Shown one piece after another: positions 48,052-56,031 of a DNA stretch of 64,000 nt. Every line of letters begins with the position of its first letter. Within the stretch, counting starts at the first letter, position 1. The notes beneath the pieces are model-generated. The model saw only the letters and a program-made list of their open reading frames with translations. It made no database searches and was not told the origin of the DNA. Both the position numbers and the translations under genes were made by a program. Origin of the DNA: Lysobacterales bacterium (GTDB lineage: Bacteria; Pseudomonadota; Gammaproteobacteria; Xanthomonadales; SZUA-5); contig JALHMH010000002.1 in NCBI GenBank assembly GCA_022844165.1, forward strand, positions 1-64,000. The letters run 5' to 3'.

Positions 48052-49968
48052 ATGGGGCGAGCATATCGTGATGAATTGACTGAATTGGCGGCGACCCAAG
48101 CGGGGGTGCCAGCGGAAGTGCCGGCACGACTCGCGGCGCTGGCGTCCCAGGCAAGCGATTTCGGACTGGTGGTGGTCGCCTCCGGCGGCGCCAAGGTCGT
48201 TGCCGAGTGGGCCAGTCGGTTGCAGCGCATGACTTTCGGGTGTGCAGCAGTTGCGATGACTCCCCTGGAATACGCCGCCCTTCCAGTGCCGGTGCGCGCG
48301 ACGACATGGCTGATTTCCGCTGGCGGGCGGCATGCAGACATTTTGCAGGCCGCTCGCTCGGCCGCCTCACGCGGCGACGCCTGTGTCGTCGGACTGATTG
48401 GCCAGCCGGAGTCGCCGCTGCAGGCGCTGCTCAAGTCCGAGTTACGAAGCGACGTCGTCGATTTCGGATTGCCGCCCGGGCAGGATGGCTTCTTGGCCAC
48501 CAACAGTGTCTGGGCAATGGCATGTGCGCTCGCGAGAGCCTATTCCCGATGGCTGCCAGTGGCTGGTGCTTTGGACAACGTCCAGTGCGAGCGCCTGTTG
48601 GCTTGGGGTGCGGAAGCGGCGCGGGCCGTCACGACCGTCGAGCTAGTCGGTCGCGAAGTAGTGGTGCTACACGACGCATGGACGAGCTTGGGTGCACAGG
48701 ACCTCGAGGCCCGCTTGACGGAGACGTCTCTGGCGAACCTGTGGATCTCGGATTTCCGCAATTTCGGCCATGGCCGGCACTTCTGGTTTGCCGATCGCAC
48801 CGACCGGACGTTGCTCGTGTCGCTAGGCTCACCCGCTTCGGCAAGCGTCTCGGCGCCCACACTGGACGTGCTTCCCGAAACTCTGTCTACGCTACCTTTA
48901 TGTATGCCCGACGATGGCATTGCCGGCGCGTTGGCCAGTCTTGCGTGGTCGATGCACATCACCGCCCGATGGGCGTCGGAAATCGGGCGTGACCCTGGCA
49001 GGCCCGGTGTTCCCCGCTTTGGCGAACGGCTCTATGAAGGCGGCTTTCCTTACCCGGACACAGTCAAAGTGGACGTTGATCAATACGCGCTCCTGCGCAA
49101 GTCCCCGCAAGCGTCGGTAACTGATGTTGCCGGAAACTGGCGCAAGGCGCTGGGGGACGCGCGTTCGCTCATGCGCGACACGCCGGTTTCCGCCGTGGTC
49201 ATGGACTACGACGGAACGATGGTGGACAGTCCCAAACGCTATCAACCTTTGGACGAATGCCTTGCCGTCGAGTTGCGCCGACTGCTCGACCTCGGCGTGA
49301 TTATTGGCGTGGCGACCGGACGCGGGGATTCGATCCAGAAGGAACTGCGTTCCGCGCTACCCGACGCGCGCCACTGGGCGCGAGTGATCGTCGGCTACCA
49401 CAACGGCGCCAAAGTGATGCGCCTAAATGAACCTGCGCCCGAACTGGATGGGGCTCCCGCCCACCCGGATCTGCGCAGCGCGTGTGACGTGCTCACCCGA
49501 GAAGTGGCAATGCGGAGCTTGGGAACGTTGCGTTGCCGCGAGCACCAACTCACCGTAACGGCGGTTGCCGGCCAGTCGCTCGCGCGCGCATGGAGAGCGA
49601 CGCGCGAGTGCTTGGACCGTAATGGCTTGGACGCCGTGCGTGTCTGGCTGAGTTCCCATTCCGTCGACGTCCTGTCCCCTTGCTGTTCCAAGCTTCATGT
49701 GGTTTCACGCGTCGCACAGGTGGCCGCCTGTTCGCCGCTAGAGGTATTGCGCATCGGCGATCGAGGTGCGTGGCCCGGCAACGATTGGGAACTTCTCGCC
49801 GCGCCACTGGGCGTGTCCGTCGATGAGTGCTCCAGCGACCCGACCGCGAGTTGGAGCCTTTTGCCGCCGACCCTGAAGGGAATGCGGGCCACGACGCACT
49901 TGCTGCGGTGCCTGCAGGTCGACGACCGGGGCCAGGTGCGATTCACTGAGGAGGTCAGCAGCGCATGA
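48052..49968 (+). CDS. SIS sugar-isomerase-like plus HAD hydrolase fusion
   Basis: VASGGA, ISAGGRHADIL, DGFLATNS, NFGHGRH; HAD motifs DYDGT, ATGRG, IGD....GND. Confidence 0.8.
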   Translation: MGRAYRDELTELAATQAGVPAEVPARLAALASQASDFGLVVVASGGAKVVAEWASRLQRMTFGCAAVAMTPLEYAALPVPVRATTWLISAGGRHADILQAARSAASRGDACVVGLIGQPESPLQALLKSELRSDVVDFGLPPGQDGFLATNSVWAMACALARAYSRWLPVAGALDNVQCERLLAWGAEAARAVTTVELVGREVVVLHDAWTSLGAQDLEARLTETSLANLWISDFRNFGHGRHFWFADRTDRTLLVSLGSPASASVSAPTLDVLPETLSTLPLCMPDDGIAGALASLAWSMHITARWASEIGRDPGRPGVPRFGERLYEGGFPYPDTVKVDVDQYALLRKSPQASVTDVAGNWRKALGDARSLMRDTPVSAVVMDYDGTMVDSPKRYQPLDECLAVELRRLLDLGVIIGVATGRGDSIQKELRSALPDARHWARVIVGYHNGAKVMRLNEPAPELDGAPAHPDLRSACDVLTREVAMRSLGTLRCREHQLTVTAVAGQSLARAWRATRECLDRNGLDAVRVWLSSHSVDVLSPCCSKLHVVSRVAQVAACSPLEVLRIGDRGAWPGNDWELLAAPLGVSVDECSSDPTASWSLLPPTLKGMRATTHLLRCLQVDDRGQVRFTEEVSSA

Positions 49969-51074
49969 AGACCAATACGGCGCTGCGCCTGCTCGCTGGC
50001 GTGATGGACTGGACGGACGAAGAGGCACGGGAAGAGTTTCGGTGGATGGACCTAATGGCTCGCCTGAAATACGACGGCTACCGTGAGTTTTTGGCGGGAA
50101 TGCGATTCTTGGAGAGTTTGGTGGCGTGGCTGCAGCAGTTCTCGCAGTCTGACCGCGCGGCGGCGTACGCCTTTGTGCGAAAGCGACTCGTGTTCGTGAG
50201 CCCTGCGGAGCGCCAGCGGCTAGTCGAACTGCTGTACTCAACGGTCGTCTGGCCGGTACTGGTGAAGTCGGCCATGCAGTCGACCTCAGCCAAGTCCTGG
50301 GAAGTGCTCGTCAATGATGCCGCCCGGCAGCACATGCAGCGCGACTTGCGCTCGACCTTGTTTCTTGCGCTGAGCGACGGCGCACGACTGGACGCATTTC
50401 GCCATGCGAATGCCGGTCGGATTTCCAACGAGCAGGTCGTGGTGACAGTTGAGCCCTCCGACGACAAATGCAACGATCTGCTCGAGGAGTTGCGAAAGGA
50501 CGTGAGCGACCCGGTCGCGGTGTTTCGTCGGATCGTGTTAGTGGATGATTTCACCGCCTCGGGCACGTCGTTGGTGCGCAGTGAATCCGGCAAGTGGAAG
50601 GGCAAGTTGCCGAAATTTTTGCGCGCCATCAACCGCGTCAAGTTGGCGAGTGGACCTTTCGAACTGCTGGTTCACCACCTCATCGGAACGCCGAAGGCGC
50701 GAGATCACCTTGCCGCGGCGATCGACGGCTGCCGCGCGTCCGAGCCGAACTTATGGGCCAAGGTTGAAAACGCCGTTGTCCCTTCGTTCGGCCTGTTGTA
50801 CCCGGAAACCCTGCCACTCGACGCGACCACCGATTCGGACTTTGTTGCGCTCACCCAAGCCTATTACGACGCGGGTATCGAGACTAGCCATACGCTCAAA
50901 GGTGGCGTGAAGCACCTCGGGCTGGGGTATGCCGGCTGCGCGTTGCCCCTGGTGCTGGACCACAATACCCCCAATAACAGCGTCGCCCTACTTTGGGCGG
51001 AGACTGAAGTTGGCAAGTACGTCGGCCCGCGCCAAGTTCGTCCGCTCTTCCGTCGCCGACAGCGGCACTCCTAG
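49965..51074 (+). CDS. Phosphoribosyltransferase-like protein
   Basis: PRPP-loop-like IVLVDDFTASGTS; C-terminal LG...LVLDHNTPNNS...PLFRR. Confidence 0.75.
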   Translation: MKTNTALRLLAGVMDWTDEEAREEFRWMDLMARLKYDGYREFLAGMRFLESLVAWLQQFSQSDRAAAYAFVRKRLVFVSPAERQRLVELLYSTVVWPVLVKSAMQSTSAKSWEVLVNDAARQHMQRDLRSTLFLALSDGARLDAFRHANAGRISNEQVVVTVEPSDDKCNDLLEELRKDVSDPVAVFRRIVLVDDFTASGTSLVRSESGKWKGKLPKFLRAINRVKLASGPFELLVHHLIGTPKARDHLAAAIDGCRASEPNLWAKVENAVVPSFGLLYPETLPLDATTDSDFVALTQAYYDAGIETSHTLKGGVKHLGLGYAGCALPLVLDHNTPNNSVALLWAETEVGKYVGPRQVRPLFRRRQRHS

Positions 51075-51081
51075 GAACAAG

Positions 51082-55485: not shown

Positions 55486-55524
55486 CTATTAATGCAATTA
55501 ATAGCACATTTATAGCAATAAATG
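55486..55524. promoter_or_regulatory. Tandem palindromic operators in a divergent promoter
   Basis: CTATTAAT-GCA-ATTAATAG and CATTTAT-AGCA-ATAAATG; TTGACT at 55473-55478. Confidence 0.7.
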
Positions 55525-55530
55525 CAAACC

Positions 55531-56031
55531 ATGCCGAGCGAGATCCAGTTCTACCGGGCCAATGAGCGCCCCTACGGCGCTTTCAGCAACCTTTACCGCC
55601 GCGATTTCGAGTTCGAAGACGAGGTATTTCCGACGGCCGAGCACGCTTACCAAGCTGGGAAGGCGCGAAAGCCTGAGGTCCGTGCTTGGCTCATGGCAGC
55701 GCCTTCCCCGGCGCTGCTGGCCATGGCGGCCCATGGCCTCTACTACTGGGACATCTCTCCGGGCTGGTCTACGAAGAAGTTCGATCGGATGAAACGAATC
55801 CTGCAAGCGAAGTTCTCGCAGCACACGGATCTGAGGCACCTCCTCTTGGGCACTGGCGACGTGAGGCTAGTTGAGTCTGCGACGGTGGATTCCGCGGTCA
55901 ACCGGCTTTGGGGCGAAGTCAATGGTGTGGGGAAGAACAAGCTTGGCCAGTTGCTGATGGAAGTTCGCGCCGAGCTTCGCGAAACGCACGGCAGCACGCA
56001 CACGCGCGAGCTACAGCTGGCGAGCGCCTGA
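55531..56031 (+). CDS. NADAR (YbiA/DUF1768) family protein
   Basis: FSNL, FPTAEHAYQAGK, KFSQH..L..LLL.TG...LVE, WG, GKNKLGQLLMEVR. Confidence 0.92.
   Translation: MPSEIQFYRANERPYGAFSNLYRRDFEFEDEVFPTAEHAYQAGKARKPEVRAWLMAAPSPALLAMAAHGLYYWDISPGWSTKKFDRMKRILQAKFSQHTDLRHLLLGTGDVRLVESATVDSAVNRLWGEVNGVGKNKLGQLLMEVRAELRETHGSTHTRELQLASA

Follow-up and report, generated by a model that had tools for sequence, protein, structure and literature searches.

The closest relatives of the gene cassette reported here (found in a window of 64,000 nucleotides from Lysobacterales bacterium) are three-gene modules, known from databases and from our survey of 5 loci. They have the same three families, order and tight coupling as this cassette, whose clade differs by adding a SIS-HAD fusion protein and a PfkB-family kinase and, in some lineages, a NADAR and a small HTH protein. 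CARF sensors have, to our knowledge, been understood almost exclusively in the role of receptors for cyclic oligoadenylates made by Cas10. Like Can1, the cassette CARF has two CARF domains in one chain, which are predicted to form a Can1-like pseudo-dimer. Unlike the CARF effectors of type III CRISPR systems, it has no fused nuclease or other effector, and its host genome (99.97% complete) had no match to the Cas10 models Cmr2 and Csm1, both of which performed as expected on control genomes. Csm1 was also absent from 3 of the 4 other cassette-bearing host genomes tested.

The effector resembles that of type III-A retrons. [quoted passage not shown] The cassette PRTase likewise has a PRPP loop, the Gx14PNN signature and a match to the PADLOC model PRTase_III-A (1.2e-10). 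In contrast to Retron-Eco11, the cassette has neither reverse transcriptase nor msDNA, as an RT domain was found by Pfam search in none of the 7 genes of the cassette and the adjoining HTH/NADAR pair, and no retron RNA was found by Rfam scan of positions 42000-60000; its control partners are instead a CARF protein and an ATPase. The retron effector also has a C-terminal winged helix, whereas the cassette PRTase has an N-terminal helical domain and its motif ends in PNNSV, lacking the final P.

Other systems share single features. DS-32, which the DefensePredictor preprint presents under validated systems, consists of a PRTase and a NADAR, and the encoding of these two proteins together, there as here, suggests a toxin with its reversal enzyme. 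In the cassette, however, the genes for PRTase and NADAR have three other genes between them, most cassettes have no NADAR, and the NADAR scores 55.8 bits against the NCBIfam model DS32_2_antiphage, for which the cut-off is 240. RtcR is described as a CARF sensor that governs an AAA+ switch (PMC4012209); there, the CARF domain is fused, the ATPase is NtrC-like and the output is transcription, whereas the cassette has separate proteins, an ORC/Cdc6-like ATPase and an enzyme as its output. The ShosT toxin is reported to combine PRTase and pyrophosphatase activities (PMC11961720), and in the Ter system PRTases are described as paired with HAD phosphoesterases, with a nucleoside-like signal predicted (PMC7824862). 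Both resemble the cassette in using PRTase chemistry against phages; as described in these sources, they have other partner proteins and neither has a CARF, and the likeness shown is one of chemistry.

The initial annotation had proposed the cassette as an undescribed system. The literature searched yielded neither a description of the five-gene cassette nor experimental work on it or its three-gene class. The system is not entirely undescribed, however, as matching families are already represented by PADLOC CARF6 models and by Pfam models with consecutive accessions (i.e., ORC-CDC6-like, PF24389; PRTase-CE, PF24390; HD-CE, PF24391).

Organization of the cassette in its prophage

The five genes are intact, tightly coupled and encoded on the + strand at 48052-55106 inside a prophage (Table 1). 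Phage genes on both sides are on the - strand and include those for terminase, portal, protease, major head protein, tape measure and a Cas4-like exonuclease. The coordinates, strands, overlaps and gaps given in the initial annotation all agree with the sequence, as does the opposite orientation of the phage genes, and the motifs that it quoted are all present (DYDGT at residue 385, VDDFTASGTS at 193, GTPGSGKT at 50, GAGD at 240 and CPVC at 105); the cos site that it mentioned was not located. A promoter scan of the divergent region between the HTH and NADAR genes returned nothing that exceeded shuffled controls.

Table 1. Features of the cassette and its immediate surroundings (positions in the window).
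Feature	Position	Strand	Remarks
Two ParB-methyltransferases (phage DNA methyltransferases)	44495-47358	-	adjoin cassette
SIS-HAD fusion gene	48052-49968	+	alternative GTG start at 47977
PRTase-CE gene	49965-51074	+	ATGA overlap with SIS-HAD gene
ORC-CDC6-like ATPase gene	51082-53019	+	7-nt gap after PRTase gene
CARF6 gene	53016-54089	+	ATGA overlap with ATPase gene
PfkB gene	54111-55106	+	21-nt gap after CARF6 gene
Small HTH gene	55111-55458	-	convergent with PfkB gene, divergent from NADAR gene
AT-rich divergent control region, HTH/NADAR	55459-55521	.	inverted repeat arms CTATTAAT / ATTAATAG, read from sequence
NADAR gene, YbiA type	55522-56031	+	divergent from HTH gene
Phage primase	56997-59318	-	flanks cassette

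Sensor, ATPase and effector

The fourth gene, listed as unknown in the initial annotation, encodes a CARF6-family sensor with two CARF domains and no fused effector. Its product matches the PADLOC CARF6 models with E values of 8.9e-94 and 2.6e-89, and its AF2 model (pLDDT 88, pTM 0.90) has Can1 (6sce) as the top VIA-align match (Z 14.6, rmsd 3.3, 232 residues aligned), followed by Can2, Cam1, Card1, Csm6, Csx1 and Csa3. The signature loops are kept (G36-R42, D131-G138 and S301-K306). No effector domain was found in the 357-residue protein, which consists of two CARF-like domains only, and the one longer relative encountered resulted from an in-frame deletion. The family has at least 1166 homologues. 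Given that the fourth gene encodes a CARF sensor, the logic of the cassette shifts from that of a pathway to that of a sensor-switch-effector module.

The third gene encodes an ORC-CDC6-like AAA+/STAND-type ATPase (Pfam PF24389, E 5e-8, 32.6 bits vs. a cut-off of 27). PF24389 is carried by 74-98% of the members of its nearest ESM Atlas clusters, which score 0.99, and neither Walker A (G50-T58) nor Walker B (D239-D240) varies among 23 orthologues. ATPases of the ORC/Cdc6 type are reported to bind DNA (preprint 10.64898/2026.10.19.760177).

The second gene encodes an effector-type phosphoribosyltransferase of the PRTase-CE family with an N-terminal helical domain (Pfam PF24390, E 3.4e-16, 60.3 bits vs. 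a cut-off of 27); none of the NCBIfam models matched it. The acidic pair of its PRPP loop (D194-D195) is invariant in 26 sequences, and G321 and P336-N337-N338 of the Gx14PNN signature are also invariant. The fold-search lists of its AF2 model (pLDDT 85) are populated by type I PRTases, such as HGPRT (Z 7.9) and UPRT (Z 7.7); this fold support is middling, as Z is at most 8.4, the top row is not a PRTase and the Foldseek E values are at least 0.006.

Binding of the CARF protein to the PRTase is supported in silico. The predicted complex reached an ipSAE of 0.88, compared to 0.11 for the best of 3 controls, a score that expresses the confidence of the model itself and is not a measurement. The runs had at least 97% of contacts in common, with partner pLDDT of at least 90. 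In calibration, 58 of 80 solved complexes attained this ipSAE mark, as did 2 of 110 mismatched pairs; these counts hold only roughly for this pair because own alignments were used. Sequence searches with the two chains found no relative of known structure for either.

Conservation and distribution of the cassette

We compared 80 loci, which are the neighborhoods of CARF homologues in other genomes from many phyla. CARF and PfkB were detected in all 80 of them, whereas the ATPase was seen in 79 loci, the PRTase in 77 and SIS-HAD in 72. The complete set of five genes was present, side by side, in 71 of the 80 loci; because they are adjacent in so many other genomes, their arrangement is more than chance. 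The PRTase, ATPase and CARF genes are contiguous and keep their order wherever all three were detected, and the SIS-HAD and PfkB genes shift as a pair in seven loci (L058, L065, L071, L073, L074, L104 and L105).

In canonical PF24389 loci, the CARF6 gene is downstream in 5/5, with the same effector-ATPase-CARF order, and the upstream effector is PRTase-CE in 2, HD-CE in 1 and a metallophosphatase in 2. A wider three-gene class thus exists, in which a swappable effector is followed by an ORC-CDC6-like ATPase and then by CARF6. The cassette, with its PF24389 ATPase, CARF6 downstream and "-CE" effector upstream, belongs to this class. As these three-gene relatives have neither SIS-HAD nor PfkB, the two enzymes are not core parts of the system and cannot be the general source of its signal; they are accessories of a single PRTase clade.

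The cassette is thus genuine; it behaves like mobile cargo of a prophage and has the hallmarks of a conflict system. Its distribution is patchy: in 24 further genomes from the family of the host, the CARF gene is absent throughout, a quick CARF tree is at odds with taxonomy, and some copies of the cassette are on plasmids. Recombinases and restriction-modification genes are among the variable flanks: a raw tally of 124 flanking ORFs from 31 loci included 4 resolvases, 4 integrases and several restriction-modification/AbiE-like genes, and no conserved sixth gene was found among these ORFs. Copies are truncated or interrupted in six loci (L018, L044, L053, L068, L069 and L073), which fits a costly defence system but also any dispensable cargo.

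These observations bear on whether the cassette could be an ordinary accessory operon for sugar or nucleoside catabolism or salvage, regulated by the CARF protein and the ATPase. PfkB, SIS and HAD proteins are frequent in sugar metabolism; however, neither a transporter nor any other gene is conserved beside the cassette, its PRTase and CARF belong to an effector family and a defence-sensor family, respectively, effector swapping among relatives is not known as a trait of catabolic operons, and the carriers are a prophage and plasmids. We consider such an operon very unlikely.

Accessory enzymes and proposed function

The first gene encodes a double-SIS-like phosphosugar domain (residues ~1-370) fused to a HAD-IIB sugar-phosphate phosphatase (~380-638). 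The HAD part of this assignment, which the initial annotation had already made, is borne out by motifs I-IV, which are invariant in 26 orthologues (D385/D387/T389, T422, K547 and G569-D570...N577-D578). Among these orthologues, Pfam Hydrolase_3 matches 23, Trehalose_PPase 9 and S6PP 7; on this prophage's copy, Hydrolase_3 scores 20.5 vs. a cut-off of 20.9. The SIS part is not confirmed: Pfam SIS matches 0 of the 26 orthologues at E ≤ 0.01, and a PDB profile search gave marginal matches over ~220 residues, the best to 2aml (E 0.013) and 3fkj (E 0.014). The GSGGS, SAGG, LESKFTE and FAHG sequences of this region align to the double-SIS motifs of these two structures, and a weak match to the glucosamine-6-phosphate deaminase 8eol was also found (E 0.02). 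The fifth gene encodes a PfkB-family sugar or ribose-phosphate kinase (Pfam PF00294, E 4e-13, 49.8 bits vs. a cut-off of 25.8) whose nearest structures in the PDB profile search are ketohexokinase and fructokinase (~1e-13). G240, G242 and D243 of its catalytic GxGD motif are invariant, and C33, H99, C105 and C108 of a Cys/His insert are conserved. NCBIfam models for ribose-1-phosphate kinase and fructokinase match 25 and 19 of 25 orthologues, respectively, all far below cut-off.

The NADAR matches Pfam PF08719 (E 5e-26, 92.3 bits vs. a cut-off of 35.1) and, at 83.3 bits vs. a cut-off of 73.7, TIGR02464, a model for the N-glycosidase of phosphoribosylamino-pyrimidines. It adjoins the cassette in this prophage's clade and in L074, L077 and L105. 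The association noted in this prophage therefore recurs in four separate cassette lineages; a NADAR is present in only 5 of the 80 loci, and HTH and NADAR genes occur together in 6 loci. The flanks of L074, L077 and L105 contain a PLD-SNF2 helicase and a kinase-FGE protein. The HTH protein, which has weak matches only (HTH_31, E 0.006; HigA, E 0.046), is probably a repressor.

With catalytic motifs conserved in every enzyme, the cassette could also be read as a small biosynthetic pathway of four enzymes, with CARF as the product sensor. In such a pathway, PRPP and an amine or base would be condensed by the PRTase into an N-ribotide, on which the GlmS/FrlB-like double-SIS domain would carry out an Amadori-type rearrangement, and phosphates would be taken off or put on by HAD and PfkB. 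The end product, either a new second messenger or a nucleoside-like antimetabolite with antiviral action, would be destroyed by the NADAR. Amino or Amadori sugars are the substrates of FrlB/FrlD and GlmS, and the alignments of the SIS region, the nearest structures of PfkB, the TIGR02464 score of the NADAR and the persistence of SIS-HAD and PfkB as neighbors despite gene-order changes are in line with this scheme. However, the sugar-enzyme equivalog scores, all far below cut-off, bar the assignment of substrates, and there are three-gene CARF6 systems that lack both sugar enzymes, some with an HD or metallophosphatase effector in place of the PRTase. The CARF ligand is therefore argued to come from elsewhere, and we give the pathway a low probability. 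That the cassette both produces and senses its own compound without a cyclase, a novel class of immune second messenger or an antiviral antimetabolite, with the product of PRPP and a base or amine being rearranged by SIS, set in its phosphorylation by HAD and PfkB, bound by the tandem CARF and erased by the YbiA-type NADAR, seems to us doubtful.

The ATPase and NADAR could alternatively point to DNA or RNA modification, in which the PRTase would mark bases with a phosphoribosyl-derived group, the ATPase would bind DNA and the NADAR would remove the mark. The reported DNA binding of ORC/Cdc6-type ATPases, the two adjoining phage DNA methyltransferases and the reported reversal of base ADP-ribosylation on DNA by some NADARs (PMC11825919) would agree with this. 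The retron relative, however, is reported to target the PRPP pool (PMC12746101). The cassette NADAR, moreover, is of the YbiA small-molecule type and missing from most loci. We know of no CARF sensors from modification systems, and regard this role as highly improbable.

The location inside a prophage may instead suggest phage counter-defence, with the CARF protein soaking up or cutting cyclic-oligoadenylate signals of the host, the NADAR stripping DarT ADP-ribose from phage DNA and the other enzymes rebuilding depleted metabolites. Stand-alone CARF-only proteins such as Crn1 can be ring nucleases, and ring nucleases such as Sso2081 are in the CARF fold-search list; phage NADARs are also reported to neutralize DarTG1 (PMC11825919). 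However, a set of 2.9 million viral contigs yielded just 2 loci vs. 188 matches in the species-genome collection, and the ten scanned flank ORFs of the NADAR-bearing L074, L077 and L105 matched no phage structural family. In retrons, moreover, the family of the PRTase supplies a toxic effector, and the NADAR belongs to the YbiA type. We regard counter-defence as very unlikely.

The best explanation, to which we give about an even chance, is that the cassette is a prophage-borne conflict module of three parts, in the version that has a PRTase as its effector, supplemented with two sugar-phosphate enzymes and acting by starvation for PRPP. It looks like putative CRISPR-independent anti-phage immunity, and a ligand-gated PRTase that drains PRPP in infected cells is likely by analogy to Retron-Eco11. 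The complex prediction suggests that the PRTase is contacted by CARF6 at its N-terminal helical domain. Upon infection, a nucleotide-like ligand would enter the CARF pocket, and the ATPase may serve as an NTP-driven switch or a DNA sensor, as their families suggest; an enzyme able to produce such a ligand was looked for in vain. By analogy to Retron-Eco11, the freed PRTase would consume PRPP or phosphoribosylate a base-like acceptor, and the resulting starvation for nucleotide precursors would abort the infection. SIS-HAD and PfkB probably handle the sugar-phosphate side of the PRTase chemistry, and the YbiA-type NADAR, where present, may cleave the N-ribosyl product and so reset or protect the cell. 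The earlier proposal of ATPase-gated, (phospho)ribosyl-centered chemistry remains a fair summary of the predicted enzymes.

The cassette places a large CARF family in a self-contained module with interchangeable effectors, in genomes without Cas10. Identification of its ligand would tell what non-CRISPR CARFs sense and could reveal a new messenger or a new trigger of PRPP starvation. The prophage copy is compact, intact and clonable, and would further illustrate the protection that a prophage gives its host against other phages.

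Layout of the cassette and its prophage setting

The initial annotation described five tightly coupled genes, with their overlaps and gaps, lying opposite to the genes of a prophage, and this anatomy was borne out by the ORF listing and by direct reading, as was every motif quoted there, each of which was found again in the sequence. PHROG matches likewise confirmed the surroundings as a tailed prophage with genes on the - strand, including terminase, portal, protease, major head protein, tape measure and a Cas4-like exonuclease. Megablast of 40000-64000 against phage records matched only pieces of this backbone and left the cassette uncovered.

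Features of the cassette and its immediate prophage neighbors
Feature	Position	Strand	Basis or junction
Two ParB-methyltransferases	44495-47358	-	PHROG
SIS-HAD	48052-49968	+	ORF listing and direct reading
PRTase	49965-51074	+	ATGA overlap with SIS-HAD
ATPase	51082-53019	+	7-nt gap after PRTase
CARF6 (fourth gene)	53016-54089	+	ATGA overlap with ATPase
PfkB	54111-55106	+	21-nt gap after CARF6 gene
Small HTH gene	55111-55458	-	Opposite strand
NADAR	55522-56031	+	63-nt AT-rich spacer with inverted repeat separates it from HTH
Primase	56997-59318	-	PHROG

The two methyltransferases just upstream of the cassette are adjacent paralogous fusions of a ParB N-terminal domain to an N6-N4 DNA methyltransferase, and a distant viral copy of the cassette (L082; L numbers denote loci of other genomes fetched round CARF or PF24389 matches) likewise has a ParB-methyltransferase upstream. 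The divergent starts of ParB-methyltransferase and SIS-HAD are separated by a 690-bp gap (47359-48051). Contigs of two metagenome libraries match the window as far as 47712 or 47717 and then diverge, and 47300-47712 is covered by one RNA-library contig at a depth of 94. It is possible that the cargo has its left edge in this gap region, especially at 47300-47717, or that the region is transcribed as a leader or small RNA. On the other side, contigs of relatives match the window only from 56119 or 56131 on, so the variable cargo may span approximately 47713-56118, HTH and NADAR included.

Scanning for promoters and terminators yielded counts no higher than in shuffled controls. Rfam returned only a sub-threshold mir-84 for 42000-60000, taken as chance; a hairpin-like match, likewise below the Rfam threshold, is placed at 47618-47707. 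Parts of the operon were covered at depth 2-4 by short contigs, identical to it, of the RNA libraries X2 and X4, possibly through DNA carry-over; these runs are metagenome contigs, and the uncovered stretches of the operon carry no meaning. Elsewhere in the prophage, a 1201-residue protein (22229-25834) aligns end to end with phrog_6128 (residues 1-1200 of 1200), a PHROG of unknown function, and its location behind the tape measure makes a function in the tail or in host recognition probable.

The CARF6 sensor and its predicted PRTase partner

The fourth gene, left as unknown in the initial annotation, belongs to the CARF6 family (PADLOC models, E 8.9e-94), for which at least 1166 homologues were found in the protein collection. 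Its AlphaFold model contains two Rossmann-like domains (pLDDT 88, pTM 0.90), and VIA-align (all against representatives) ranked Can1 first (Z 14.6, rmsd 3.3, 232 residues aligned), followed by Can2, Cam1, Card1, Csm6, Csx1 and Csa3. The CARF fold was visible only by VIA-align, as Foldseek against the PDB returned only generic tandem Rossmann matches (TM <=0.3); a PDB sequence-profile search with CARF6 found nothing. Can1 is a type III CRISPR nuclease that carries two CARF domains in one chain. Judged from its two modeled domains and the Can1-led matches, the CARF6 protein is a predicted tandem-CARF sensor without an effector domain of its own.

Cas10, which would be the CRISPR source of a signal for the CARF, is lacking from the host: models of Cmr2 and Csm1 gave no match in its genome (99.97% complete), while the control genomes were detected. 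Csm1 was also absent from three of four other host genomes tested, and in the fourth it lies 2.7 Mb from the cassette.

The PRTase matched Pfam PRTase-CE (PF24390, E 3.4e-16). Its model (pLDDT 85) gave middling fold scores in lists dominated by type I PRTases, and a PDB sequence-profile search found nothing. The acidic pair of the PRPP loop and a G-x14-P-N-N block are invariant among 26 orthologues; Gx14PNNxP is described as a signature of retron-associated PRTase effectors, and activation of the Retron-Eco11 effector as lowering PRPP by about half and aborting infection (PMC12746101).

The predicted complex of PRTase and CARF6 scored 0.88 (0.87, 0.88 and 0.88 in three runs), compared to 0.11 for the best of three controls; among solved complexes 58 of 80 attained this mark, and among mismatched pairs 2 of 110 did, a calibration that is only rough here because own alignments were used. 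At least 97% of the contacts were common to the runs, with partner pLDDT of at least 90. On the PRTase the interface falls in the helical domain at the N terminus (residues 26-116) and in residues 276-283, and on CARF6 in the termini and residues 234-277; the PRPP loop and the conserved loops of the CARF stay free. The modeling thus supports binding of CARF6 to the PRTase.

Among the remaining enzymes, the ATPase matched Pfam ORC-CDC6-like (PF24389, 32.6 bits vs. a cut-off of 27), and a PDB sequence-profile search with it gave a P-loop match only. The HAD half of the proposed SIS-HAD protein stood, with all four HAD motifs invariant in the orthologue alignment and Hydrolase_3 matched by 23 of 26 orthologues. 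The SIS half was marginal: the N-terminal 370 residues matched double-SIS proteins at E 0.013-0.014 with the characteristic motifs aligned, and none of the 26 orthologues scanned reached Pfam SIS. The kinase is a Pfam PfkB protein whose nearest structures by sequence profile are ketohexokinase and fructokinase; matches to ribose-1-phosphate kinase and fructokinase models fell far below cut-offs. It has a conserved CPxC insert (C105, C108) together with C33 and H99, residues that suggest a putative zinc site, unusual among PfkB kinases. In 45 loci the kinase also ends in a tail bearing a second CPxCP pair, which the window copy is without.

Conservation, spread and a wider three-gene class

A pattern scan with one genome per species yielded 188 loci encoding the CARF, and the 80 best of these were retrieved and searched by tblastn with seven window proteins. 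Among these best 80, CARF and PfkB were detected in 80 each, ATPase in 79, PRTase in 77 and SIS-HAD in 72, and 71 held all five genes, which answers in the affirmative the initial annotation's question of whether the genes stay syntenic. Of the eight loci in which SIS-HAD was undetected, four (L030, L034, L075, and L076) are explained by a contig end inside the cassette; L018, L044, L053, and L072 have flanking DNA with partial or no SIS-HAD matches. The ATPase is missing from L047 because of an in-frame deletion that joined a truncated PRTase to the CARF. In three cassettes (L068, L069, and L073) the genes are separated by an additional 2-3.4 kb of DNA that holds long ORFs and possibly represents insertion sequences.

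The order PRTase-ATPase-CARF was contiguous in every locus with all three detected, and SIS-HAD and PfkB shift place as a pair in L058, L065, L071, L073, L074, L104, and L105, which together suggest two sub-modules. When small ORFs were clustered across loci, the C-terminal tail of PfkB and the NADAR/HTH pair were all that came out, and no additional gene proved to be conserved.

A search for CARF forms lengthened by fusion found a single protein, that of L047, which is recorded from two contigs. At 642-2807 of this locus, one 722-residue ORF consists of a PRTase cut before Gx14PNN and fused in frame to a complete CARF; the ATPase is gone. We rejected it as a working fusion and read it as a deletion product.

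A PF24389 search of 401 genomes of the phylum gave matches in at least 12, a lower bound: it missed the window's own ATPase and scored only 3 of 31 first-look candidates. Around ten matches, 17-18 kb were fetched (11.7 kb for L102, at a contig end). Two, L104 and L105, were further five-gene cassettes. In all five canonical loci examined, the gene upstream overlaps or abuts the ATPase and CARF6 lies downstream (PADLOC E 2e-100 to 2e-11). Two of the five encode PRTase-CE as the upstream effector, two a calcineurin-like metallophosphatase and one HD-CE (PF24391). Neither SIS-HAD nor PfkB was found in the DNA fetched round the ATPase of the two three-gene PRTase loci. By this comparison of gene content, the core is taken to be a sensor-switch-effector trio with interchangeable effectors, to which the window's clade has added a sugar-phosphate pair (SIS-HAD and PfkB). 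Interchangeable effectors are a hallmark of conflict systems. The consecutive Pfam numbers of PF24389, PF24390 and PF24391 suggest that these families were curated together.

The three-gene relatives also bear on the main rival to a ligand-gated PRTase, i.e., that the cassette enzymes themselves build the molecule read by the CARF. They speak against it as a general rule, although the window clade may differ, and we consider it unlikely.

Cassette hosts included Pseudomonadota, Acidobacteriota, Planctomycetota, Myxococcota, Nitrospirota, Thermodesulfobacteriota, Binatota and Poribacteria, and phyla were intermixed in a quick CARF tree. Some copies are on plasmids, and within the host's own family the CARF gene was absent from all 24 further genomes searched. 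Among 2.9 million viral contigs only two loci were found, one a near-identical phage and the other a distant copy adjoining ParB-methyltransferase. At 31 loci the two ORFs closest to the cassette on either side were scanned (124 in total, tallied without background control), and no family was widely common; the most frequent were phage-type integrases (4), resolvases (4), DNA methylases, type I specificity subunits, ResIII, AAA_21 and AAA_15.

NADAR and the proposed mode of action

The last gene is a NADAR by Pfam. NADAR and HTH occur together beside the cassette in L001-L003 and L081 (the window clade), L074 and L077, and NADAR also does so in L105. These lineages lie far apart, since their cassette proteins are 29-44% identical, compared to 67-70% for NADAR, and on the quick CARF tree the NADAR label has to change two times or more. 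No phage structural family was matched by any of ten ORFs flanking L074, L077 and L105. The AT-rich spacer 55459-55521 holds the inverted arms CTATTAAT and ATTAATAG and a TTGACT box, and is likely an operator of the HTH protein.

The DefensePredictor preprint treats DS-32, a PRTase and NADAR pair, in its section on validated systems and suggests a toxin-antitoxin logic. The window likewise pairs PRTase with NADAR, but its NADAR falls below the DS32_2 cut-off; it passes that of an N-glycosidase model for phosphoribosylamino-pyrimidines. NADAR would here be an optional enzyme reversing the PRTase product; alternatively, it may be an AdfN-like anti-DarT gene.

For the cassette itself, the favored reading, to which we give about even chances, is a ligand-gated PRTase that, with an ATPase switch, drains PRPP or phosphoribosylates an acceptor and aborts infection. 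CARF6 would hold the PRTase until a nucleotide-like ligand from infection and an NTP-driven ORC/Cdc6-like switch freed it, and the freed enzyme would then drain PRPP or phosphoribosylate its acceptor, whereupon the infection would abort. What the comparisons establish is the gene families, their synteny, the exchange of effectors, the mobility of the cassette and the lack of Cas10; the binding, the ligand, the parts played by the ATPase, SIS-HAD, PfkB and NADAR, and defence as such are inferences.

Neither the cassette nor the three-gene class was described in any paper found; CARF6 neighborhoods may stand in Makarova et al. (2020; CARF classification), Burroughs et al. (2015) or their supplements. 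The novelty first claimed is therefore narrowed, as the parts are already catalogued in databases, and what would be new is the joining of CARF signaling to a PRTase effector.
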